Positions 1-55,716 of a stretch of 64,000 nucleotides of DNA are shown here, piece after piece. How positions within the stretch are numbered: the first letter of the stretch is position 1; each line of letters begins with the position of its first letter. The stretch is from Candidatus Omnitrophota bacterium. Its GTDB lineage: Bacteria > Omnitrophota > Gorgyraeia > 2-01-FULL-45-10. The stretch covers positions 8,884 through 72,883 of the forward strand of contig JBAYMS010000001.1 of the NCBI GenBank assembly GCA_041663425.1, written 5' to 3'. The translations under genes and the position numbers were made by a program. The notes beneath the pieces were generated by a model, which was not told the DNA's origin, searched no databases, and worked only from the letters and a program-made list of their open reading frames with translations.

Positions 1-168
1 CTCTGAGCCCAACTCTTTAAGTTCGCTGCGTGGGAGGGTCTTCTCCCTCATCTGCAATATATCCACACCGCCGGAAATCGCAAGCCTGGCGATTTCTGCC
101 GCAGGCCTTCCTTTGCCGCATTCTCCACTCAATACGAGATATAAGTTATGCTCTTTTAATTTGCTCAT
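1..168 (-). CDS. thiE: Thiamine-phosphate synthase (ThiE), N-terminal part; the gene runs off the window edge
   Basis: The reverse-strand translation starting at the ATG at 166-168 reads MSKLKEHNLYLVLSGECGKGRPAAEIARLAISGGVDILQMREK..., which resembles ThiE N-termini. It is open to position 1. Confidence 0.55.
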   Translation of the reverse strand, partial: MSKLKEHNLYLVLSGECGKGRPAAEIARLAISGGVDILQMREKTLPRSELKELGSE

Positions 169-219
169 AGATAAAAAACCCTCGCACCATACACCAAACT
201 TATGCTGTCAAGGCTGTTC

Positions 220-1218
220 TCACAGTCTTAAGCGTTCAACATCCTCGATTGTAGCAGGTTTTACAGAGATAGTCTTTTTATCCGCCGAACCCGCCTGCCA
301 ATAATAGACGTTCAGTAATGGTTCGTTCCTGAACTTTGTATGATACGCCGCGACGCCTGCGGCCAGGGCAATGGTATTTTCATCGCCACCACCACGCAAA
401 ACCGCCAGAGGTCCCTGGTAATCTTTTAACTTAAACATGATATCTGTCTTTCCTGCCATCTCCTGAAGCGCCTCATTCTCATCCTGGTCTCTTCCCACAG
501 CCAGCTTAGCCGCTGAAGATATCCTGAAGTGACGTCCGACCGTCAGGAACTTCAGATTCTGGGGTGAGAGTTCATTGTGCTGTATAAGGTCTTTAACCCT
601 CTTCGTAAAACCGGGGTCGGTAAGAAGACACCCGCCTGCCGGGTTCGGATATTGTTTTATACCATATTGTTCGGCCAGGGTAAATTGCGGCTTACGCGAC
701 CGGCCGGATATGGCAAGCAGCCTTTCTCTGTCAACAGCACCGTCTTTTTCCGGCACTGTAGGCTCGAGCAGTTTTGCCGATAGGGGTCTGAGCAGAAAAC
801 CTTTTAAACCGGAATCTCTTGTAATGATGTTAAGCGCATCGAGCCTCTGAGACATCGGCCGCTCACCGAGCACTTCTCCCGTTATGATAAATGATGCCCC
901 AAACTCGGCCATCATTTCTTTAGCTTTTTTAAGCATAAATATTTTACAGTCGATGCACGGATTTATATTTGCACCATATCCATGGCTGGGATTTTTGAGG
1001 ACACTTATATATTCTTCGGTAATATCGACGACTCTGATCGGCACGTCGAGCGCCTTGGCAGCTTTCGTCGCGACATTCTCACCATCCTGCATGATGCAGG
1101 CGCAGAAATCTATAGAAAAATTTACCGCCTGGACCTCGACATTCTGTTCCTGCATCAGCTTTACGGCAAGAATGCTGTCAAGTCCGCCTGAAAACATAGC
1201 AATACACTTTTTGTTCAT
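220..1218 (-). CDS. PP-loop superfamily ATP pyrophosphatase, ThiI-like sulfurtransferase
   Basis: It has an N-terminal SGGLDS PP-loop motif, a CIDCK cysteine motif and a ThiI-like GEVLGERPMSQ segment. It lies next to thiE. The exact family is uncertain. Confidence 0.5.
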   Translation of the reverse strand: MNKKCIAMFSGGLDSILAVKLMQEQNVEVQAVNFSIDFCACIMQDGENVATKAAKALDVPIRVVDITEEYISVLKNPSHGYGANINPCIDCKIFMLKKAKEMMAEFGASFIITGEVLGERPMSQRLDALNIITRDSGLKGFLLRPLSAKLLEPTVPEKDGAVDRERLLAISGRSRKPQFTLAEQYGIKQYPNPAGGCLLTDPGFTKRVKDLIQHNELSPQNLKFLTVGRHFRISSAAKLAVGRDQDENEALQEMAGKTDIMFKLKDYQGPLAVLRGGGDENTIALAAGVAAYHTKFRNEPLLNVYYWQAGSADKKTISVKPATIEDVERLRL

Positions 1219-3879: not shown

Positions 3880-5184
3880 TCACTGCTTTTTAAGATTTTC
3901 AAGCCATTCTTTGATCTTTTTCTCGTAACCCATCTCGGTTGGGATGTAATAAGCCTTGCTGGAGGGCTTATATTCCTGCTTCACATAATGATTTTTGAAA
4001 TCGTGCGCATATTTGTAATCTTTGCCGTGTCCGAATGCATCGGAATCCATAGTAGCATCTTTGAGGTGGTTAGGCACTTCCAGGACCTTACCCTCCTCAA
4101 CATCTTTCATAGCTGCCTCTATGCCCAGATACGCCGCATTTGACTTAGGTGCACATGCTACATAAACGGCTGCCTGGGCAAGCGGTATGCGCGCTTCCGG
4201 CATTCCGACAAATTCCGACACCTGCAGCGCCGCATTCGCTATTACTATCGCCTGCGGGTCTGCGTTACCCACATCTTCTGCCGCACATATCACGATTCTG
4301 CGGGCTATAAACCGCGGATCTTCGCCTGCGTAGATCATCTTTGCCAGCCAATAAAGCGCTGCGTCCGGATCCGAGCCTCTCATAGACTTTATGAATGCGG
4401 AGATCGTGTCGTAATGCCCGTCTTCGTCTTTGTCATACAATACGGACTTCTTCTGTATCGACTCCTCGGCAACTTTAAGCGTAAAATGTATTTTTTTGTC
4501 TTTGGCGGCAAGGGTGGTCAGCGCTCCTACCTCAAGCGCAGAAAGAGCCCTCCTCGCATCACCATCTGAAACTTTAGCCAGATGCTCCAGCGCTCCGGCC
4601 TCTATCTCAACCGGCATCTTACCAAGTCCGCGCTCTTTGTCTGCCAAAGCCTTTTTTAATATTGTAATTATATTTTCGTCTGAAAGTTTCTTGTATTCGA
4701 AAACCTGGGACCGGGACAGTAAGGCGGCATTTACGTAAAAGAACGGGTTATGTGTTGTTGTGCCTATCAGTATTGGGTTGCCGGCTTCAACATCCGGCAT
4801 AAGCACATCCTGCTGCGCCTTATTAAACCGGTGTATCTCGTCGACTAAAAGTATTGTCCGTTTGCCGCTGGTCGCTTCGCGCTTATGCGCCTGTTCTATT
4901 ATACGCCGCATGTCCGCGACATTGTTTGACGCGGCGTTTATACGCTCAAAATGGGAATTCGTCTTCTCGCTTATTATAAGAGCAAGTGTAGTCTTGCCGC
5001 AACCAGGAGGGCCATAAAGAATTATCGAGGAGATAGTATCGGATTCGATCAGACGGCGCAACAGCTTATCTTTGCCGAGGATATGTTCCTGGCCTACAAA
5101 ATCATCGAGCGACCCGGGCCTCATACGCGAGGCCATAGGCTCATTTTCTTTTATTTTAATTTTTTCTTTTTCGAATAGATCCAT
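3880..5184 (-). CDS. rarA: Replication-associated recombination protein A (AAA+ ATPase RarA/MgsA)
   Basis: It has the Walker A motif GPPGCGKTTLA and the C-terminal MgsA-type helical domain WLAKMIYAGEDPRFIARR. Confidence 0.9.
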   Translation of the reverse strand: MDLFEKEKIKIKENEPMASRMRPGSLDDFVGQEHILGKDKLLRRLIESDTISSIILYGPPGCGKTTLALIISEKTNSHFERINAASNNVADMRRIIEQAHKREATSGKRTILLVDEIHRFNKAQQDVLMPDVEAGNPILIGTTTHNPFFYVNAALLSRSQVFEYKKLSDENIITILKKALADKERGLGKMPVEIEAGALEHLAKVSDGDARRALSALEVGALTTLAAKDKKIHFTLKVAEESIQKKSVLYDKDEDGHYDTISAFIKSMRGSDPDAALYWLAKMIYAGEDPRFIARRIVICAAEDVGNADPQAIVIANAALQVSEFVGMPEARIPLAQAAVYVACAPKSNAAYLGIEAAMKDVEEGKVLEVPNHLKDATMDSDAFGHGKDYKYAHDFKNHYVKQEYKPSSKAYYIPTEMGYEKKIKEWLENLKKQ

Positions 5185-5423
5185 ATTAAATAAAAAAATC
5201 CCCGCCTGTGCCGTGTGAACTTAATAATTTTGATCCCGATTCTCATCAGGTGGGAGCCCTCGAACAAACGCCAAAGCGTTTAACCAGTTAGGCCCCCGAT
5301 TCTAAATTATTGGGTCAAAATTTCTAATTCAATCACGCGCACCGCAGGGATATTTCTATTCCTAAATAAAGTATATCATACGATTACCGCAAAGGCAAAT
5401 TACGCCCGGGCGGTGCGATGGTT

Positions 5424-18490: not shown

Positions 18491-18722
18491 CCCAAAAAAT
18501 CTCCCAAATTTATTCAGCCAAGGTGTCGGCTAAGTGTCGATATCCACCGATATCAACCTTCTATTACAAAACCTTATTTAATTTAAAAGTAACAGAATTA
18601 GTAGAGCCTGTTGATAAGTTAGTAACTTTTTAATATATTGCAAAATAACGACTTAAAAACAATTAAAACCAGCCGGAACCTATAAAACTTATCAACACAA
18701 CTAACAACATATACCCAAAAAG
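18491..18722. promoter_or_regulatory. AT-rich dnaA-dnaN intergenic region with inverted DnaA-box-like 9-mers (candidate oriC/DUE segment)
   Basis: TGTTGATAA at 18609-18617 (the reverse complement of TTATCAACA) and TTATCAACA at 18689-18697 each differ from TTATCCACA by one mismatch. The region is strongly AT-rich. Confidence 0.5.
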
Positions 18723-20327: not shown

Positions 20328-20465
20328 ATGAAATACGGATTAACATGCAAATCGAACCTAAAACGTAAACGAAAACATGGTTTCAGGAAACGAATGAAAG
20401 ACCGTTGGGGCAGAGAAGTGCTTAAAAGGCGCAGACAGAAAGGCCGGCACAAGCTTACTGTATGA
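20328..20465 (+). CDS. rpmH: 50S ribosomal protein L34 (45 aa; not in the ORF track)
   Basis: My own translation is [45 protein letters not shown], which matches L34. Its stop overlaps the rnpA start (ATGA). Confidence 0.9.
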
Positions 20466-20821
20466 TCTCCGACGAGAGATTCTGTAAAAAAGAACATATT
20501 CTCAAGTCAAAAGAGTTCAGTAAAGTATATAAAAAAGGATCGGCAGGCAGGATAAGCGGAGTTGTTTTGTATTGCCTGGAAAATAAGCTTGAGCACAATC
20601 GTTTGGGTTTTTCAATAGGGTCAAAAAATATTAAGCGCGCCACGTCCCGCAACCGCATACGAAGGTTGTTTAGAGAAGCTTACCGGAAAAATAAACGTAA
20701 ATTTAAGTGCGGCTTTGATATTGTTATGGTAGTGCGAAAAGACCTGCACAAGGATCTGACTTACAATTCCGCAGAAGCCGCTTTTTTGAAACTTGCTAAA
20801 GAGGTAAATCTGGCGGTATAA
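20462..20821 (+). CDS. rnpA: Ribonuclease P protein component
   Basis: It is 119 aa, basic, and follows rpmH in the usual order. It reads [22 protein letters not shown]. Confidence 0.9.
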
Positions 20822-36155: not shown

Positions 36156-37079
36156 ATGAAACCTGATCTTCAAGTAAAAATAGGAACGCTGAAACTTAAA
36201 AACCCGGTCATGGTAGCGTCGGGGACATTCGGCGCTGAATACCGGGAGCTTGTCGATGTCGGTAAGCTGGGTGCGATAGTCACCAAGACCATTACGCTAA
36301 ACGGTCGCGCCGGCAATCCTGCCCCGAGAGTGGCGGAGGCATCTTCAGGTATGCTCAATTCGATAGGACTGGAAAACAAAGGGCTGGAAGATTTTATAAA
36401 CAAAAAAATACCGGCTTTTCCGGGCGGTGATACCAAACTTATTGTAAGTATTGCCGGAGACACCGAAGGTGAATTTACGCGCATGGTCGGAGAGCTCGAC
36501 AAAGTGAAGAAGGTGAGCGCTATAGAGATCAACCTCTCCTGCCCAAACGTAAAGCACGGCAGCAGGACCGGACTTACTGCCCAGGATGAGGACGCATCAT
36601 ACAGTGTAGTGCGCGCTGTGCGCAGGGCGACGGGACTGCCGATCATAGCGAAGCTTACTCCGAACGTAACCGATATAGCGAAGATAGCTGTGGCTGTGGA
36701 GAAGGCCGGTGCCGACGCTATCCTCGCAGTTAATACATTTGCCGCTATGGCTATCGATATCGAGACCCGCAGGCCTAAGCTCGGGAACGTGACGGGCGGT
36801 TTAAGCGGTCCGGCGATAAAACCTATAGCGCTGAAGATGATATGGGACATTTACAATAAAGTAGAAATCCCTATAATAGGTGTGGGCGGTATCATGAATT
36901 ATAAAGATGCCGTTGAATTTATGCTCTGCGGCGCGGCAGCGATACAGGTCGGCACGGCTACATTTGTAAATCCAAACACAGCGATCGAGATCATAAAAGG
37001 ACTTAATAAATACTGCAGTGATAAAAATATAAAAAATATGTCCGAGCTCGTCGGAAATATTAATATAGGCCGCTTGTAG
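36156..37079 (+). CDS. pyrD: Dihydroorotate dehydrogenase catalytic subunit (class 1B)
   Basis: The likely start is MKPDLQVKIGTLKLKNPV at 36156. It has a TIM-barrel DHOD with GGIMNYKDAVEFMLCGAAAIQVGTA. Confidence 0.9.
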   Translation: MKPDLQVKIGTLKLKNPVMVASGTFGAEYRELVDVGKLGAIVTKTITLNGRAGNPAPRVAEASSGMLNSIGLENKGLEDFINKKIPAFPGGDTKLIVSIAGDTEGEFTRMVGELDKVKKVSAIEINLSCPNVKHGSRTGLTAQDEDASYSVVRAVRRATGLPIIAKLTPNVTDIAKIAVAVEKAGADAILAVNTFAAMAIDIETRRPKLGNVTGGLSGPAIKPIALKMIWDIYNKVEIPIIGVGGIMNYKDAVEFMLCGAAAIQVGTATFVNPNTAIEIIKGLNKYCSDKNIKNMSELVGNINIGRL

Positions 37080-37088
37080 AACTCGCGG

Positions 37089-37122
37089 CACTTAGCCACA
37101 CCGTGGCTTAATAAACTTGGAG
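37089..37122 (+). repeat. Copy A of the repeated leader motif CACTTAG-[GCCAC..GTGGC hairpin]-TTAATAAACTTGGAG, immediately 5' of pyrF
   Basis: The sequence is CACTTAGCCACACCGTGGCTTAATAAACTTGGAG. Two more copies lie at 55047-55133. It supplies a GGAG RBS 5 nt before the ATG. Confidence 0.5.
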
Positions 37123-37126
37123 CATT

Positions 37127-37840
37127 ATGACATCCATTAATAAATTGATAGTAGCGCTCGATGTAAATACCGAAGAAAAAGCGGTCGCCCTGGCTGAGAC
37201 GCTGAAAAATGAAGTGAGATTTCTCAAGATAGGCCTTGAGTTATTTTCAGCATGCGGGCCGAAGATAGTGGAGAGGATAAAAGAGACCGGCTGCGATGTA
37301 TTCCTCGACCTGAAATTTCATGACATTCCGACAACAGTTATGAAAGCCGCAGCAGCGGTAACTGCGCTCGAGCCTTTCATGTTCAATGTGCACGCGCTGG
37401 GCGGATATGAGATGATGAAACGGACTGCCGAGGCTGTAGCGAGCGAGACCTCAAGGCTCGAAATAGTAAAACCGAAAGTTCTGGCGGTGACGATACTTAC
37501 CAGCATGGACGAAAAGGCGATGAGAGAGATAGGGCTATCCTTAAATCCGAAAGACGCGGTTCTGAAATTGGCTGCTCTGGCGAAAAAAGCGGGCTTAGAC
37601 GGAGTGGTGGCTTCACCGTCCGAGACGAAAGCCATAAGGGAAGAGCTGGGCGAGGATTTTATTATAGTGACTCCGGGTGTGCGTCCGGAATGGGCCGCAG
37701 TAAATGATCAGAAGAGGGTCGCCACACCGAAAGCGGCAATAAAAGACGGCGCAAATTATATAGTTGTCGGCCGTCCGATAACGGAATATAAAGATCCTGC
37801 CGAAGCGGCCAGGCAGATACGAAAAGAGATGGAGATATGA
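37127..37840 (+). CDS. pyrF: Orotidine 5'-phosphate decarboxylase
   Basis: It reads LIVALDV...DLKFHDIPTT. Confidence 0.9.
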   Translation: MTSINKLIVALDVNTEEKAVALAETLKNEVRFLKIGLELFSACGPKIVERIKETGCDVFLDLKFHDIPTTVMKAAAAVTALEPFMFNVHALGGYEMMKRTAEAVASETSRLEIVKPKVLAVTILTSMDEKAMREIGLSLNPKDAVLKLAALAKKAGLDGVVASPSETKAIREELGEDFIIVTPGVRPEWAAVNDQKRVATPKAAIKDGANYIVVGRPITEYKDPAEAARQIRKEMEI

Positions 37841-38541: not shown

Positions 38542-38616
38542 CTTCTCTGAATAACCCAAGCCATGCAGTCCCGAGGAGATGTGGTTTGACTGATGCGACG
38601 AGGGACACTTAACCCT

Positions 38617-38859
38617 ATGAGCAAGTGGACTGTTTATATTCTTAAATGTAATGACGCTTCTTTATATACCGGCATTACGACCGATCTTGAAAAACGGGTA
38701 AAAAAGCACAATGAAGGCCGTGCTGCGAAGTACACGAGAGCAAAAAGGCCTGTTTCAGTGGTTTATACTGAAGGCGCTGTTAATTCATCCTCAGCTAAAA
38801 AGAGAGAAGCCGAGATAAAAAAATTATCTCGACAAGCTAAGGTAGAGCTGATAAAATAA
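38617..38859 (+). CDS. GIY-YIG nuclease family protein (UPF0213-like)
   Basis: It reads WTVYILKCNDASLYTGITTDLEKRVKKHNEG. The likely start is MSKW at 38617. It lies between two tRNAs. Confidence 0.7.
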   Translation: MSKWTVYILKCNDASLYTGITTDLEKRVKKHNEGRAAKYTRAKRPVSVVYTEGAVNSSSAKKREAEIKKLSRQAKVELIK

Positions 38860-39104: not shown

Positions 39105-39599
39105 ATGGCGAATAATATTGATGTTTCAAAACTTCCGCTAAGCAAGATATTGATTTTGTTTGGCGACTTAATGGATGAGCTGAAGAAAAGAGGCGTTGTT
39201 AGAACGCGTAATAATCCGGTAGCTGACTATGCCGAATGGCTAACGGTAAGAGTCTTTAGTCTTGGCATCCAAACAAGCTCTAACAAAGGCTTTGATGCCA
39301 TTGATAAAAAAGGAATTCGATACCAAATAAAAGGCCGTAGGCTCGATGCTTCAAACCCATCCCGGCAATTGGGGGTTATTCGCGATCTTGATAAAAAGGG
39401 ATTCGATTTTCTTATCGCTATCATATTTAACAAAGATTTTACTATTCACGATGCCTATAAAATTCCGCACGAGCTCATAGGCGAATACGCTCGTTATAGT
39501 AAACATCAAAATGGATATATATTACACCTTAAAGGAAAAATTCTTCTGGCAAAAGGCGTTGAGAATATTACCGGAGCATTAAGCAAAGTTTCGGCATGA
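39105..39599 (+). CDS. Hypothetical small protein, possibly PD-(D/E)xK nuclease-like, 8 bp upstream of the PHP-ATPase gene
   Basis: It is 164 aa. Candidate catalytic motifs are GFDAID ... YQIKG (D...(E/Q)xK). I recognise no family for it, and the motif assignment is tentative. Confidence 0.35.
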   Translation: MANNIDVSKLPLSKILILFGDLMDELKKRGVVRTRNNPVADYAEWLTVRVFSLGIQTSSNKGFDAIDKKGIRYQIKGRRLDASNPSRQLGVIRDLDKKGFDFLIAIIFNKDFTIHDAYKIPHELIGEYARYSKHQNGYILHLKGKILLAKGVENITGALSKVSA

Positions 39600-39606
39600 G
39601 GAGATT

Positions 39607-42477
39607 ATGAACTATCCACGAGGGTCGGAATGGAGAAAATGGGACTTACATTTACACACACCGTCTTCTTATGATTACGATGACAAGAGCGTCACAGATG
39701 AGCAATTGATTAAAACCTTAAAAGAAAACGAAATTACCGTTGTAGCTATAACGGATCATCATTTTATAGATGTTGAAAAGATAAAGAAACTACAAGAATT
39801 AGCAAAAGACGAAATTACAATATTCCCGGGGATTGAGCTTCGAGCAGAGCTGGGAGGTAGCGAATCCATCCATTTTATAGGAATATTCCCAGAGGATTCT
39901 GATGTAAATGATATTTGGACAAAATTACAGGGGCAGTTAGAATTAACGCCAGCGGATGTAAAGAAAAAAGGTAATGATAAGATTTATTGCCATTTGAATA
40001 AGGCCGCCGAGCTTATTCATCAGTTGGGAGGCATTATAACTATTCATGCTGGCTCGAAAAGTAACTCGGTTGAAAAAATCACTAATGCGCTTCCATATAA
40101 AGAAGCGCTTAAAGAAGACATTGTGAAATCTATCAATGTCTATGAAATCGGGAATTCAGCCGATGTGGAAGGATACAGAAGCAATGTTTTTCCGAACATA
40201 GGGATTAAAATTCCTTTGGTAATTTGTTCTGACAACCACGATATAAAAAAGTATGTGTTAAAAGAGAATTGTTGGATAAAAGCAGATCCAACATTTACCG
40301 GGTTAAAGCAGATTATATTAGAGCCGGAGGATAGGGTATATATTGGCAAAGCTCCAACGAGGAGGAAAAACCTCGCCAGCGTAATCGACAAGATTGAGAT
40401 TAGTAATTCTAACGGGTGGTTTGAGGAATCCCCTATTGTTTTAAACGAAGACTTGGTCACCATAATAGGAGAAAAAGGTGCCGGTAAGACCGCGCTTGCC
40501 GATTTTATAGCTCTGGCGGGCGGGGATTTTGGGCTTCAAAAAAGCGATGCTAGCTCTTTTGTATTCAAAGCTCTAACCCCTACCAAACAAATCGAGAAGA
40601 CCATTGAAAATTGTCAAGTAACTATCAAATGGAAAGAGGGCAATCCCGACCAGATAACTATAAACAAAGAGCTGGTTGATTATAAACCTACGAAGAAAGT
40701 AAAATATTTATCTCAAAGTTTTATTGAGGAAAAATGTCGCCCAGAACACGCTGATGAATTGAGAAAAGAAATCGAGAATATCGTTTTTCAATATATACCA
40801 ACATCCGATAGGCTTGGGCAAACAACATTTAACGATTTAAAACGTTTAATGACGCGGGGTATTGAAGTAGAAAAAAGTAACTGCAGACAGCTTTTATTCG
40901 ACCTCAATGGTGAAATTTCTATTCTAAGAGACGAGATAGATAATCTCGAAGTACAAAAGTCAACTAAGAAGAAAACTGAAGATGAAATAACTCAGTTAAA
41001 TGAACAGAAACCAAAACCTGCTGATGCCGAGGAAAAAGCCATCGAAGATAAGCTGGCTATTTTATATACCAAGAAAAGTGAGATTAACGAAAAAGTTGCA
41101 GAATGCAAGTTGCAATTAAGCACCATAGAATCTATAAAAACAAAGCTGCTAGCTCTAAGTCAATACGTTGAAAAAGAATTGATTAGCATTAAGACGGACC
41201 TTGATTCAATAGCTTTAGGCAGTATTTACAACAAGCTAACATTTTCAATAAATCCAGAATTTCATACGAAGCTTGATGAAGCTAAGAATAAGCTGACGAA
41301 ACAGATTAAAGATTTTGAAGGAGCGCCGGAAAAAGTATCGTCCCTCACCGAAGATGAGAAAAAACTAGAGCTGATAACGACTGATTTTGTCAATGGGCTC
41401 ACACTTTCTCGTTTAGATGTAATTATAGAATGGCTAGAAACAAAATCGAGCATTGCCTATGATGCAAGAAAAGTTATTAAGGATTTCGAAGAGAAAATAG
41501 AGAAAAATAAGAAAGCAGTAGCATCTTTAGAAAAAAGCATCGCCGAGGTAGAGAAAACAAAAAAACCTACTCTTGCGAAGAAAATCGAGGAAAGAAATAG
41601 TGCCTATAAAAGTTATTTCACTTTGCTCCAAAAAGAAAAAAGTGTATTTGAAAGCCTGAGCGCACCTATTAAAACAAAAATTGATTCAGAGAATGTTGGT
41701 GATAAGCAGATAGGTTACTCAGCAAGAATTGAATTTGATGTTAATGGATTTTATGAAAAAGCATGTGAAATAATAAATTTCAAAGCAGCTGGTCATTATC
41801 ATCAAGATGGCCAACTGTTATTTAAAGATATCAAAGCCATAGCAGAAAAGATTGAGCTCGCAGAAGATGCCGATGTTTGCGCTTGTCTTGTAGACCGGTT
41901 CATTCAAACATTCGAAAAAGATGATGGTAGCGATGTTGATATTAAAACTCAACTGAAAAAAGGTAAAAAACAAATTGATTTTGATGCATGGCTTTTTGGT
42001 ATTTCATTCTTCAGCGTGACATATAGCATAAAATACCAAGATACTTATATTGAATTGCTATCTCCTGGAAAAAAAGGGATAGTGTTGTTACTAATGTATC
42101 TCACGTTAGATGCTGAGAGTGGCATACCGTTGATTATAGACCAACCAGAAGAAAATCTAGACAACAAATCCGTATATGCGCATCTAATAGAATACTTCCG
42201 CCAAGCCAAGAAGCGGCGGCAAATTATCGTTGTAACACACAATCCGAATTTAGTATTAAATACAGATGCCGAACAAGTGCTTGTTGCTGATTTTCAAGTC
42301 GTACCACCTGCGGGGCAAGCAAGAATAAGATATATAAGCGGGTCTATAGAAAATTCGTTTATTAACGAGTCTCTCAAAGACCCTCTCAGAAGACAGGGTA
42401 TTCGCGAGCATGGTGCCGAGATATTGGAGGGCGGTAAAAAGGCCTTTATTCAGCGAAAAGATAAGTACGAATACTAA
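39607..42477 (+). CDS. 956-aa fusion of an N-terminal PHP phosphoesterase domain with an SMC/Rad50/SbcC-like ABC ATPase that has a long coiled-coil insert (Ppl-like candidate defense protein)
   Basis: The PHP motifs are WDLHLHTPSS, AITDHH, ITIHAG and CSDNHD. The Walker A is GEKGAGKT (about aa 290). Roughly 500 aa of K/E-rich coiled coil follow. The ABC signature-like motif is LSPGKKG, the Walker B is LIIDQPEENLD and the H-loop is VVTHN. Confidence 0.7.
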   Translation: MNYPRGSEWRKWDLHLHTPSSYDYDDKSVTDEQLIKTLKENEITVVAITDHHFIDVEKIKKLQELAKDEITIFPGIELRAELGGSESIHFIGIFPEDSDVNDIWTKLQGQLELTPADVKKKGNDKIYCHLNKAAELIHQLGGIITIHAGSKSNSVEKITNALPYKEALKEDIVKSINVYEIGNSADVEGYRSNVFPNIGIKIPLVICSDNHDIKKYVLKENCWIKADPTFTGLKQIILEPEDRVYIGKAPTRRKNLASVIDKIEISNSNGWFEESPIVLNEDLVTIIGEKGAGKTALADFIALAGGDFGLQKSDASSFVFKALTPTKQIEKTIENCQVTIKWKEGNPDQITINKELVDYKPTKKVKYLSQSFIEEKCRPEHADELRKEIENIVFQYIPTSDRLGQTTFNDLKRLMTRGIEVEKSNCRQLLFDLNGEISILRDEIDNLEVQKSTKKKTEDEITQLNEQKPKPADAEEKAIEDKLAILYTKKSEINEKVAECKLQLSTIESIKTKLLALSQYVEKELISIKTDLDSIALGSIYNKLTFSINPEFHTKLDEAKNKLTKQIKDFEGAPEKVSSLTEDEKKLELITTDFVNGLTLSRLDVIIEWLETKSSIAYDARKVIKDFEEKIEKNKKAVASLEKSIAEVEKTKKPTLAKKIEERNSAYKSYFTLLQKEKSVFESLSAPIKTKIDSENVGDKQIGYSARIEFDVNGFYEKACEIINFKAAGHYHQDGQLLFKDIKAIAEKIELAEDADVCACLVDRFIQTFEKDDGSDVDIKTQLKKGKKQIDFDAWLFGISFFSVTYSIKYQDTYIELLSPGKKGIVLLLMYLTLDAESGIPLIIDQPEENLDNKSVYAHLIEYFRQAKKRRQIIVVTHNPNLVLNTDAEQVLVADFQVVPPAGQARIRYISGSIENSFINESLKDPLRRQGIREHGAEILEGGKKAFIQRKDKYEY

Positions 42478-42883: not shown

Positions 42884-43026
42884 ATGATACATGAAAAAAA
42901 CGTATTTAACGATATCTTCGCTGATTTGATTTGCCATTCCCAGTTTGATGGAGGGCATAATCCTTTAGATTATTTGCACTATATGGACAAAATGGAACAG
43001 GCTAGAAAAAATAATAATGAAGAAGT
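42884..43026 (+). pseudogene. ORF whose 3' end is truncated by the IS insertion
   Basis: The ATG at 42884 opens MIHEKNVFNDIFADLICHSQFDGGHNPLDYLHYMDKMEQARKNNNE, and the reading frame continues into the IS inverted repeat. Confidence 0.3.
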
Positions 43027-43037
43027 GACCTTACCCC

Positions 43038-43751
43038 TTACACTGCACAGCTCGTAAGGTGAATTTCTGGTGTTTTTTGTTGTTCTTTCCAGGCCTTGGT
43101 GAACTCTGCCGGAGTTAGACCGTCTAACGATCCGTGAGGCCTGAATGTATTATACTCCACTCTCCAGTCTTCGATAATCTTTTTTGCTTCTTCAATCGTA
43201 ACGAAGTAATGTTGATTGAGGCATTCGTGCCGTAGCCTACCATTGAACGACTCGATAAAAGCGTTCTGTATGGGCTTGCCGGGCTTTATAAAGTCAAGCC
43301 TAGCACCGTTATCATACGCCCATTTATCAAGGGCTCGTCCCGCGAACTCAGGACCGTTATCGGTCGTGATTACTTGCGGACATCCTCTTGTAAGAACTAG
43401 CCAATCAAGCACTCTCGTTACTCTGTTACCGTCTATAGACGTATCGACTTCGATAGAGAGACATTCTTTAGTAAAGATATCAAGCACGTTCAGCGTCTTT
43501 ATCTTCCTGCCGTTCCATAACCCGTCTGACATAAAGTCCATCGCCCAGCGTTCATTGGGCTTCGAGGCTTCCGGTAGCTCTAGTCTGATCATTGAGGCTC
43601 TCTTGTGACGTTTGCGAAGCTTTAGCGCGAGGCTATTCTCCTTATAGATGCGCTCGGTGCGCTTATGGTTTACTACAAGTCCCTCACGATGCAATATATC
43701 GTGAAGCATCGGAAGTCCCCAGCTCTTATGCGTAGCTATAAGCTCCTTCAT
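43038..43751 (-). CDS. IS3-family transposase OrfB (DDE integrase catalytic domain); the N-terminal part is upstream in the -1 frame, overlapping orfA
   Basis: It has an rve-type core: ITTDNGPEFAG...LDFIKPGKPIQNAFIESFNGRLRHECLN. Confidence 0.85.
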   Translation of the reverse strand: MKELIATHKSWGLPMLHDILHREGLVVNHKRTERIYKENSLALKLRKRHKRASMIRLELPEASKPNERWAMDFMSDGLWNGRKIKTLNVLDIFTKECLSIEVDTSIDGNRVTRVLDWLVLTRGCPQVITTDNGPEFAGRALDKWAYDNGARLDFIKPGKPIQNAFIESFNGRLRHECLNQHYFVTIEEAKKIIEDWRVEYNTFRPHGSLDGLTPAEFTKAWKEQQKTPEIHLTSCAV

Positions 43752-43888
43752 ACGGTCTAATATCTTCGCATCGTTATTAGCTCTACTGGTCTTGTAATAA
43801 TAGCTTGATCTATTAAGCTCTACAAGCCTGCATGATCTAGCCTTCGACAGCCCAAAGCGCTCTTTTAACCGAGCTACAGCAAGTCTCT

Positions 43889-44167
43889 TTACTTTGGGCT
43901 TAGGAAGTTTTTTGAGTTGAGCGCCTTTAACGCCTGGTTATCGAGTGTTAAGTCCGCGACTATGTTCTTTAGTCTGCGGTTCTCATCCTCGAGCGCCCTT
44001 AGTTTCTTCGCGTCTGATACTTCCATGCCGCCATACTTCGATATCCACTTATAGATCGTGCCTTCACAGACATTAGCTTCTCTTGAGATATCTGAAACCG
44101 CCACTCCTTGCTCATGTCTCTTTAAAAAAGCTATTATCTGTTCCTCTGTAAATCTTTTGCGTGACAT
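43889..44167 (-). CDS. IS3-family transposase OrfA (HTH)
   Basis: It reads MSRKRFTEEQIIAFLKRHEQGVAVSDISREANVCEGTIYKW and has a leucine-zipper-like C-terminus. Confidence 0.85.
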   Translation of the reverse strand: MSRKRFTEEQIIAFLKRHEQGVAVSDISREANVCEGTIYKWISKYGGMEVSDAKKLRALEDENRRLKNIVADLTLDNQALKALNSKNFLSPK

Positions 44168-44517
44168 ATCCCGAGCCTCCTTTACGTAGCTATTGGTAGC
44201 TACGGTTATACACTAGGAAACTCGCCTTGTAAACTGTCTAGTTTAGCGGGGTAGGGTCACTTTCGTCAGTTTAAATTATGGCGAGCCCGCAGATTTTTAC
44301 ATTGTCCCAAGCAAAGTCGTTGCAACCTTCATAAAAAAACATAATCGAAAGTGGCTTAAGACCCCCGGCAGAAAAGGCCAGAAACACAACCAAACCTCAA
44401 TGAGACAATTTAGAGACGACGAACAGCGATATCGTAACGCATATTACCTCATGAAGTTGTAATATTTTGTAAATTTATATAATAGTTTAAGGGACGGTTC
44501 TGACGAAAATCTGACCG

Positions 44518-54969: not shown

Positions 54970-55046
54970 AAATAAAATTTAAGTTCGATGAAACTTTTTT
55001 ATCCAATCTCTTGTCTAATATTCGAAGCCTACGCCAGGAGACATAG

Positions 55047-55133
55047 GCACTTAGCTAACTGTGTGGCTGAATAAACTTGGCTGATGTCAGAGACATCAGC
55101 ACTTAGTCAGCAGCGTGGCTGAATAAACTTGGA
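55047..55133 (+). repeat. Two tandem copies (B1, B2) of the leader motif, separated by a perfect hairpin
   Basis: B1 is CACTTAGCTAACTGTGTGGCTGAATAAACTTGG (55047-55079). The hairpin is CTGATGTC-AGA-GACATCAG (55080-55098). B2 is CACTTAGTCAGCAGCGTGGCTGAATAAACTTGGAG (55099-55133). A third copy lies at 37089-37122. Confidence 0.5.
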
Positions 55134-55143
55134 GGGATTGGAT

Positions 55144-55716
55144 ATGTTAAAACAAATACTAAAATGTAAGGTAACGACGGCTCTTTGTTTGGCGCTGGTT
55201 TTATGCTCTCAGGAAGCATTTGCCAGAGGGGGAGGCGGGCCCGGACCTGAGCCGCGGCATCGCGGAGATTATTATTATCGCGGAGATCAGTTGTATAGGC
55301 ATGGATGGCTAGGGTTTGATATTGCTGTTGCGGCGCTGACTATAGGCGCAATAGTAGATTCTCTTCCGCCAAGGTATAACACGGTTGTGGTCGGAGGGGT
55401 GCCGTACTACTATTATGGGAATGCCTACTATAGGCCATGTCCGGGCGGTTACGTTGTTGTTCCGCCGCCTATTGCAACTCAACCCATTATAGTAGCGTCT
55501 GAAGCGGTCCAGCCGGTTACCGTGGTTACTCCGGTGGTCGCTGCTCAAACTCAGGCCCAGACCGCTGAAACGGTGACAATCAATATCCCCAGTTCAAAAG
55601 GCGGGTATAAAGCGATATCGCTCAAAAAATCAGGCAACGGGTTTATCGGGCCTCAGGGCGAGTATTATTATGAGCATCCCACAGTTGAGCAGTTAAAAAC
55701 ATTGTATGGAAGTTAA
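55144..55716 (+). CDS. Secreted Tyr/Gly-rich protein of unknown function
   Basis: It has a signal peptide, then RGDYYYRGDQLYRHGW ... GVPYYYYGNAYYRPCPGGYVVVPPP. The ATG at 55144 is preceded by a GGAGG that lies inside repeat B2. Confidence 0.45.
   Translation: MLKQILKCKVTTALCLALVLCSQEAFARGGGGPGPEPRHRGDYYYRGDQLYRHGWLGFDIAVAALTIGAIVDSLPPRYNTVVVGGVPYYYYGNAYYRPCPGGYVVVPPPIATQPIIVASEAVQPVTVVTPVVAAQTQAQTAETVTINIPSSKGGYKAISLKKSGNGFIGPQGEYYYEHPTVEQLKTLYGS

Follow-up and report, generated by a model that had tools for sequence, protein, structure and literature searches.

In the 64,000-nucleotide (nt) stretch of a Candidatus Omnitrophota genome analysed here (contig JBAYMS010000001.1, positions 8,884 to 72,883; "the window" in what follows), a repeated unit of about 52 nt lies directly upstream of three genes, pyrF, dnaN and the gene of a secreted DUF6515 protein, with its last two bases forming part of their Shine-Dalgarno sequences (SDs). 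A sequence-only reading had noted three copies of a leader motif of roughly 34 nt; all three are present, with the core CACTTAG-N9/10-GGCTKAATAAACTTGG at 37089-37120, 55048-55080 and 55100-55132, although the length was underestimated and a fourth copy, before dnaN, was missed. The claim that the similarity is not accidental is borne out by shuffling: allowing up to three mismatches, the 18-nt core matches the window four times compared with 0.08 expected, and none of 100 dinucleotide-preserving shuffles reaches four matches. A filter-free covariance-model search of the window found nothing beyond these four copies.

Copy A (51 nt, 37070-37120, plus strand, 65.8 bits) is located in the SD of pyrF, within the 3′ end of pyrD. 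As read from the sequence, it opens with a hairpin (CCGCTTGT-AGA-ACTCGCGG, 37070-37088) that has a 2x2 mismatch and contains the TAG stop of pyrD (37077-37079), continues with CACTTAG (37089-37095), a second hairpin (AGCCAC-ACC-GTGGCT) and the tail TAATAAACTTGG, and ends in a rebuilt SD, GGAG (37119-37122), the initial GG of which is also the end of the element; the ATG of pyrF (PF00215) follows at 37127-37129. Two other copies form a tandem dimer on the same strand. The first of them, B1 (53 nt, 55028-55080), is a partial covariance-model match of 39 bits, with a decayed first hairpin (CCTACGCC...GACATAGG, 55028-55047), CACTTAG at 55048-55054 and the tail end CTTGG at 55076-55080. The second, B2 (52 nt, 55081-55132, 74.5 bits), has an 8-bp first hairpin (CTGATGTC-AGA-GACATCAG, 55081-55099), CACTTAG at 55100-55106 and CTTGG at 55128-55132, and its last two G begin the SD GGAGGG of the DUF6515 gene (SD and start codon together, 55131-55146), whose ATG is at 55144 and not at 55145 as first given. 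The perfect hairpin at 55081-55099 had been described as separating both B copies; it is indeed there but, because every copy has such a hairpin at its 5′ side and B1 has its own, decayed, it is the first hairpin of B2 and not a separator. Finally, copy C (53 nt, 18504-18556, minus strand, 65 bits, fold z = -3.1) lies in the SD of dnaN, in the spacer between dnaA and dnaN, and comprises the hairpin TTGATATC-GGTG-GATATCGA, CACTTAG (18536-18530) and the tail GAATAAATTTGG; the dnaN SD, GGGAG, is at 18505-18501 and its ATG at 18490-18488. The mean pairwise identity among the copies of the window is 65%, and they look old.

As each copy carries the first hairpin (hp1) directly 5′ of CACTTAG, the unit is about 52 nt long (51-53) and not about 34. 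From 5′ to 3′, it consists of hp1, CACTTAG, a second hairpin (hp2) and the tail KAATAAACTTGG. The first hairpin is GC-rich and imperfect, with 8-9 bp, for instance CCGAGGTC-AGA-GACCTCGG; its commonest form, CCTCGGTC-GGA-GACCTCGG, has a 2x2 TC·TC mismatch, and in another variant, CCGCTCGT...ACTCGCGG, a mismatch of this kind is found, shifted in position. The recurrence of this mismatch among hp1 variants suggests that it is a recognised imperfection. GGA is the commonest hp1 loop, and AGA, TAAA, GCCA and GGTG are also frequent. The second hairpin has the form AGCYR-loop-TGGCT, with a 6-nt loop, and is followed by an A-rich single-stranded tail. The two hairpins are unrelated to each other, hp1 abuts the left junction, and terminal inverted repeats (TIRs) are absent, the 5′ end, (G)GCCTCGG, not being complementary to the 3′ end, AAACTTGG. 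In the consensus of the copies, two invariant blocks enclose a variable segment of 8-12 nt. There is no ATG inside the unit, and no open reading frame (ORF) crosses it: of 132 distinct copies, 65 have stop codons in all three frames (compared with 11% of shuffles) and 131 have them in two or three.

When one genome of each bacterial and archaeal species was scanned with an exact pattern, 25 stretches matched, in six metagenome-assembled genomes (MAGs), all of Candidatus Omnitrophota. A metagenome scan in which the last two G of the pattern were left free added more than 117 stretches, and the viral contigs scanned contained no copies. Practically every aligned copy also has the parts external to the pattern, namely hp1 and, before it, an A-rich flank with GG at its end. 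In total, the window included, there are 151 arrays (110 monomers, 37 dimers, three trimers and one tetramer) with more than 190 copies; 137 of these arrays are non-redundant, the metagenome share being that found among the matches listed. The dispersed loci, more than 140 in number, were drawn from independent assemblies and from no fewer than 11 metagenomes, and their anatomy is constant. Tandem arrays with a period of 52 do occur, as a local minisatellite without dispersal would have it, but such a minisatellite is at odds with so many dispersed loci of the same anatomy, as are chance similarity and an assembly artefact, which would also have to account for the excess over shuffles in the window; explanations of this kind may practically be set aside.

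The placement of the unit relative to genes is highly uniform. An SD-like motif and an ORF lie 3′ of 104 of the 137 non-redundant arrays, the start codon being mostly 9-12 nt past CTT, which agrees with the identical placement before the start codons of unrelated genes that had been claimed from the window. In at least 104 of the 137, the unit is in the sense orientation and its final GG is part of the SD of the gene; among the further arrays, several are of the SD type with short or cut ORFs, and seven are followed by a diverged copy. About 136 of the 137 point the same way, and the reversed one (L101; loci of the collection are cited by L numbers) has its left end against a G-rich SD. A genome-wide scan with positions recorded relative to start codons had been suggested at the outset; the copies found elsewhere are many and lie nearly always at a fixed distance 5′ of starts, not at random, so that the refuting outcome named at the time did not occur. 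The downstream genes, which include nusB, gyrA, gyrB, fabZ, metK, hisD, panB, parA, a response regulator gene, genes of lipoproteins, dnaN, pyrF and the DUF6515 gene, are unrelated and have no common function. On the upstream side, a same-strand ORF ends no more than 150 nt away in 90 of 99 evaluable arrays; this distance is 10 nt or less in 54, and the stop is inside the unit in 18. The flank logo of 100 SD-type arrays reads A69 A80 G89 G99 to the left of the element and G100 G95 A70 G88 G67 to its right; when the terminal GG of the element is subtracted, the reconstructed target is AAGG/AGG (the slash marks the insertion point), a canonical SD.

Comparisons with related genomes reveal the corresponding empty sites. 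PyrF homologues were retrieved with their contigs, giving six loci (L026-L031) with PyrF identities of 76-85%. In these loci of relatives, pyrD and pyrF overlap (ATAGGAGCATTATGA-type, with ATGA in most) and there is no unit between them; one of the unit-free loci belongs to MAG STD1_87, which carries the unit elsewhere. The sequence of the relatives is ...AATATTAACATAGGAGCATTATGA and that of the window ...AATATTAATATAGG-(51 nt)-AGCATTATGA, the empty site being ATAGG/AGCATTATGA. In the window, the pyrF SD is thus split by the unit precisely after its GG and before its AG and, consequently, pyrD now ends at the TAG in hp1, its C-terminus changing from ...NIGAL (stop) in the relatives to ...NIGPL (stop). 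Similarly, at dnaN, four relatives with DnaN identities of 86-90% lack exactly the 53 nt: they read TAATAGAAGGGGGA...ATG (empty site TAATAGAAGG/GGGA), while the window reads TAATAGAAGG-(53 nt)-GAGA...ATG. Occupancy also differs in the opposite direction, as the window lacks the unit at gyrA and gyrB, where MAG mb.39 has it, and has it at dnaN, where mb.39 does not. The nusB and response-regulator sites differ in occupancy between STD1_87 and mb.39, and L082 has a filled and an empty paralogous site (ACAGG/AGGGGG) whose left flanks are 96% identical. These comparisons show a precise, oriented and lineage-specific insertion into SDs. The terminal GG takes the place of the displaced G's, and the downstream gene consequently keeps an SD at normal spacing, while upstream reading frames that used to extend into the SD now end at stop codons of the unit.

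There are also signs of more recent activity. In mb.39, identical 52-mers are found at unlinked loci, and the mean pairwise identity of its copies is 91%, compared with 77% in STD1_87. Tandem arrays of one to four units with a period of 52 recur in other genomes, and their copy number varies between corresponding loci: one (L007) versus two (L104) with 100% identical flanks, two versus one for L016 and L099, and two versus three for L066 and L087. The unit has been multiplied locally into tandem arrays, whose length differs between near-identical strains.

The structure of the unit was analysed in two sets, consisting of 36 genome sequences and 110 metagenome sequences aligned to the model. 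As had been proposed from the window, the copies were folded and compared, and both hairpins covary. In hp1, all eight pairs have changed on both sides, and in both sets the covariation is greater than in all 500 shuffles and in every slid control. In hp2, there are 61 G·U or U·G cells, which on the opposite strand would give A·C mismatches; the wobbles therefore identify the folding strand as the gene-sense strand, either as RNA or as single-stranded DNA. The hairpins have thus been kept by compensatory changes, with wobbles on the sense strand only. The predicted RNA folds contain the two hairpins, with AAUAAACUUGGAGG and the SD unpaired, and have z values from -1.8 to -4.3.

Such a structure next to an SD is also what a conserved cis-regulatory RNA leader would look like, that is, a leader whose hairpins would be read by a shared RNA-binding regulator or RNase and whose copies would be kept by selection; for instance, a CsrA-like protein could bind the GGA in the hp1 loop and the GGA in the SD. 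The fixed sense orientation and start-codon distance, the covariation with wobbles valid on the transcript-sense strand only, the stable predicted fold with a free SD, the predominance of GGA among the hp1 loops and the occupation of some sites in several species are all consistent with it. The origin of the unit as a conserved translational-control or processing leader, one of the possibilities first put forward for it, is nevertheless contradicted by its absence from the orthologous junctions of close relatives that have the same genes and operon structure. Moreover, the downstream genes do not have a function in common, near-identical copies exist within one genome, copy number varies between identical flanks, and the hp1 loops vary, unlike the conserved GGA of CsrA-type sites. 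Rfam 15 gives no relevant match in the window at the gathering score, nor around the array even at E≤10. Sequestration of the SD by the CCUC of hp1 was considered and discarded because the predicted pairing is too weak, its mean probability being 0.11 for hp1 of the TC variant and 0 for that of the GA variant. We consequently regard a regulatory leader as an unlikely explanation for the unit, one that could hold only as an effect acquired secondarily; an influence of the inserted unit on translation or mRNA processing may exist.

The best account of these results is probably that the unit is a mobile repeat of about 52 nt that neither codes for protein nor moves autonomously, and whose family is confined to a clade of Candidatus Omnitrophota. 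It would move as single-stranded DNA, recognised through its hairpins by an enzyme acting in trans, in a manner like the "peel and paste" of IS200/IS605 elements or that of repetitive extragenic palindromes (REPs) and their associated transposases (RAYTs). We infer a single-strand DNA mechanism because the unit has neither TIRs nor a clear target duplication and is inserted 3′ of a sequence that resembles its own 3′ end. Tandem arrays might then arise by re-insertion behind the ...CTTGG of the unit itself. Once inserted, the unit would be co-transcribed, with its two hairpins folding just 5′ of the unpaired A-rich SD region, and the insertion would break translational coupling with the upstream gene. 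It may possibly act as an mRNA stabiliser or processing site, but it would persist mainly through being nearly harmless where it lands. A more elaborate proposal is that the unit is the substrate of an SD-homing, sequence-guided, RBS-specific (RBS, ribosome-binding site) single-strand DNA transposon system, co-opted by the host to uncouple or re-tune operon translation. The TC·TC mismatch would in that case leave an anti-SD-like CCTC unpaired, which could pair with the GAGG of the target as guides do in IS608. A comparison of hp1 variants with their flanks gives no support to the guide idea, copies with a CCGA-type hp1 being also found at SDs, and we consider the proposal improbable.

Several observations weigh against the mobile-repeat interpretation, or against its simplest form. 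About 12 arrays are not at an SD. In eight of them, the terminal CTTG opens a canonical -35 box (TTGACA-N16/17-TATACT-like), for instance CTTGACA-N17-TATACT before mraZ; in L054, a tRNA-Gly gene begins exactly after ...AAACTT; and in L042 (about 140-225, minus strand), a tRNA 5′ fragment begins directly after the unit. These arrays show that invariance ends with the G after CTT. They also show that pure SD targeting is insufficient: either sites other than SDs are targeted as well, or survival has shaped the pattern, and the SD bias could be partly survivorship and not target choice. The G or GG at both junctions is compatible with a target duplication of 0, 1 or 2 nt, a single left G being found in L015, L017 and B1 of the window. 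Some copies must be old and retained, because several species whose flanks are 76-89% identical have the unit at the same site. Furthermore, of 41 pairs of adjacent array units, 22 have identical hp2 loops and only 12 an identical hp1, a pattern that neither simple duplication nor independent re-insertion explains. The conservation of the core is partly a consequence of the search, because the copies of the collection were found with a core-fixing pattern; diverged relatives escape this pattern, while hp1, the flanks and the start-codon distance are unaffected by the bias. The left hairpin touches the junction, unlike at the left end of IS608. Finally, a search confined to the 1.06 Mb surrounding the copies, and not extended to whole genomes, found no autonomous parent or transposase with matching ends, and the Y1_Tnp/RAYT-like genes of L018, L048 and L014 were rejected as mobilisers, being flanked by other palindromes.

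With regard to particular arrays of this group, the left flank of the -35 fusions is often ...CTTGG, which looks like a 5′-truncated earlier copy. The L042 fragment includes the acceptor stem, the D arm, half of the anticodon stem and a CGT loop, and ARAGORN calls no tRNA there. In L071 (3100-3400 and 4367-4650), each of two paralogues, presumably DUF1016/YhcG-like as judged by eye from the N-terminal sequence, lies behind a unit, a promoter (TTGACA-N16-TATATT) and a leader, about 100 nt long, that ends in a terminator-like hairpin. Arrays whose units share the hp2 loop, even rare variants, and have clearly different hp1 include L011, L012, L016, L047, L051, L060, L067, L103 and L137, among others. 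A pattern match in L125 lacks hp1 and was dismissed as chance.

The arrays away from SDs raise a further possibility, namely that the unit is a portable promoter cassette like Neisseria REP2, in which the two invariant blocks would serve as -35 and -10 elements with the hp2 loop as their spacer, and transcription would start at the G after CTT, giving mRNAs that open with the SD and tRNAs that lack a leader. The two blocks flanking a variable 8-12-nt segment would suit such an arrangement, and the consensus, read by eye, offers TCGGCA-N16/17-(TG)G-CTKAAT 7 nt before the terminal G; GGCACTT also resembles the sigma-E-type -35, GGAACTT. The exact start of the tRNA-Gly gene and of the tRNA fragment after ...AAACTT points in the same direction. 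By contrast, position -11 is T or G, not A, and a sigma-70 consensus scan of the window array found nothing on the sense strand (one terminator-like match there is hp1 read antisense). No promoter is needed in the tight same-strand junctions where 90 of the 99 evaluable copies reside, the upstream stop being no more than 10 nt away in 54, and there is no obvious rationale for tandem promoter arrays. In the eight -35 fusions, a separate canonical TTGACA-N17-TATACT promoter starts at the last TTG of the unit, which places the unit upstream of the real promoter. The promoter cassette is thus quite unlikely, somewhat more so than a regulatory leader.

Returning to the mobile repeat, candidates for the mobilising activity were sought around the copies. 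Searches with the head or the tail of the unit alone found only chance 10-mers and 5′-truncated array remnants, and clustering of the ORFs near copies revealed no recurrent transposase, the top clusters being two-component proteins, epimerases, ABC ATPases and the pyr operon. The Y1/RAYT query sequences were approximate, and membership of the Y1_Tnp family was confirmed by Pfam. In L018 (1300-1900), a separate REP-like palindrome, GTAGCGCACCC-TTAA-GGGTGCGCTAC, followed by ATTGTGGATAAC, is inverted around a frameshifted Y1_Tnp (RAYT-like) gene; palindromes and gene are probably a classical REP/RAYT pair of these Omnitrophota. The same palindrome family is found in L081 (685-725), L136, L082 (6040-6075 and 7350-7385), L112, L039 and L064, and TGTGGATAA, which resembles a DnaA box, is part of this REP-like repeat. 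L048 (4400-5400) contains another Y1_Tnp/RAYT-like gene (4659-5294), with two copies of the palindrome TCGACCGGG(K)CGGTGGGACCGGGGCGGTCGA upstream and one downstream. The window itself has an IS3-family element (43020-44265, minus strand) with orfA (HTH_Tnp_1, 43892-44167), orfB (rve integrase core, 43041-43751) and 15-nt inverted repeats (AAGTGACCTTACCCC / GGGGTAGGGTCACTT) at 43023-43037 and 44248-44262; it was rejected as a parent because its ends are unrelated to the 52-nt unit.

Literature searches returned no paper describing this repeat, or any repeat that splits RBSs and repairs them with its own end, although several known systems share some of its features. The mycobacterial interspersed repetitive units (MIRUs), reportedly described by Supply et al. 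in 1997, are among the closest of these. These elements of 40-100 bp lie in the sense orientation in intercistronic operon junctions, are co-transcribed, vary in tandem number, have filled and empty sites and have no known transposase (PMC3184786). Our unit resembles them in size (52 nt), in its tens of dispersed loci, sense placement at operon junctions, filled and empty sites and variable arrays, in its GC-rich internal inverted repeats and in that no transposase was found for it either. By contrast, the small ORFs of MIRUs overlap neighbouring genes, whereas the unit closes frames with stops and contributes half an SD; MIRUs have tetranucleotide direct repeats and imperfect TIRs, whereas the unit has no TIRs and only the G/GG ambiguity. 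In addition, there is no sequence relation, and the phyla differ.

Neisseria REP2 and the Borrelia IR repeats, of which Parkhill (2000) and Morelle (2003) are said to have given accounts, are likewise dispersed, lack TIRs and place two stem-loops and an RBS right upstream of unrelated ORFs. REP2 measures 120-150 bp, has two stem-loops followed by an RBS, supplies a promoter and an ATG, and is linked to a co-regulated gene set (PMC3184786). The unit, with 52 nt, is less than half as long, supplies only the 5′ half of the SD, has no ATG and no convincing promoter, and is mostly operon-internal, with demonstrated empty sites.

In IS200/IS605 elements and in the REP/RAYT system, imperfect subterminal palindromes and cleavage sites read by short guides lead to insertion 3′ of a short target, with no duplication and with the lagging-strand template as substrate (PMC3201880, PMC5027513, PMC6006769). 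Palindrome-associated transposable elements (PATEs) and REPs share with the unit the absence of TIRs and of a clear target duplication, hairpins at both ends, oriented insertion 3′ of a short sequence (AAGG here) and the tolerance of mismatches and wobbles on one strand. In IS608, about 8-11 nt separate the 3′ hairpin from the right end, an arrangement to which that of the unit may be likened. As differences, the two hairpins of the unit are unrelated, and no Y1 HUH gene accompanied by its hairpins was found around copies, the Y1_Tnp genes seen there having other palindromes. The GC skew of the window changes sign at about 20 kb, in the interval from dnaA to rnpA, and copies to either side of this place are directed away from it, which would fit movement of this kind; skew is positive on the element strand in 80 of 90 loci. 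Both observations are, however, confounded with gene orientation. The origin region itself (about 18.5-20.5 kb) has dnaA-dnaN-dciA-gyrB-gyrA leftward (minus strand) and rnpA (20462-20818) rightward.

[quoted passage not shown] The unit is similarly small, non-coding and multi-copy, with filled and empty sites, and MITEs are often co-transcribed, but they do not home to RBSs. A MITE-like mobile cassette had been the other possibility raised by the sequence-only reading: its mobility is corroborated by the empty orthologous sites and the variation in copy number, but because TIRs are absent the unit is not a classical MITE.

Some neighbouring features and other repeats deserve mention. The window contains a 6S RNA (5195-5353, minus strand; Rfam RF00013, 77.5 bits). 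A stand-alone GIY-YIG nuclease gene of 80-88 amino acids (aa) is conserved just 3′ of pyrE, in the window at 38593-38856, between tRNA-Val and tRNA-Asp, and in relatives at L026:11423-11665, L030:11012-11254 and L031:2363-2605. Beside tRNA-Asp, a DUF6998 gene is followed by that of a 956-aa SMC_N/AAA_21 ATPase (39105-42477), and the two could be a defence-type gene pair. MAG mb.39 has a repeat of about 170 nt (CGGCGGCCGAGTTCCGCAGGTTCCCC...CGCACTTAGGTCAGACGACG...) in L013 (1150-1330), where it lies upstream of nusB, and in L017 (about 5060-5340, minus strand); the "CACTTAGGTCAGACG..." repeat of L013 and L017 was rejected as a copy of the unit, having only the heptamer CACTTAG in common with it. 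In the same MAG, the gyrA ORF has 1806 aa (L014:501-5919), compared with 862 aa in the window, and the gyrB ORF at least 1011 aa (L004, from 4966 to the end of the locus), compared with 813 aa, which suggests inteins or other large insertions.

In practical terms, the unit can serve to recognise this Omnitrophota clade specifically and, as with loci of variable numbers of tandem repeats, to distinguish strains; it is also a source of mis-annotated gene ends such as the altered C-terminus of pyrD. If the targeting is real and not survivorship, insertion would be nearly neutral by design, through the half SD that the unit brings, its stops and the SD that it leaves unpaired. Translational coupling would then have been rewired in operons such as pyrD-pyrF, and at dnaN beside the origin, and these repeats would point to an unidentified recombination activity in an uncultured phylum.

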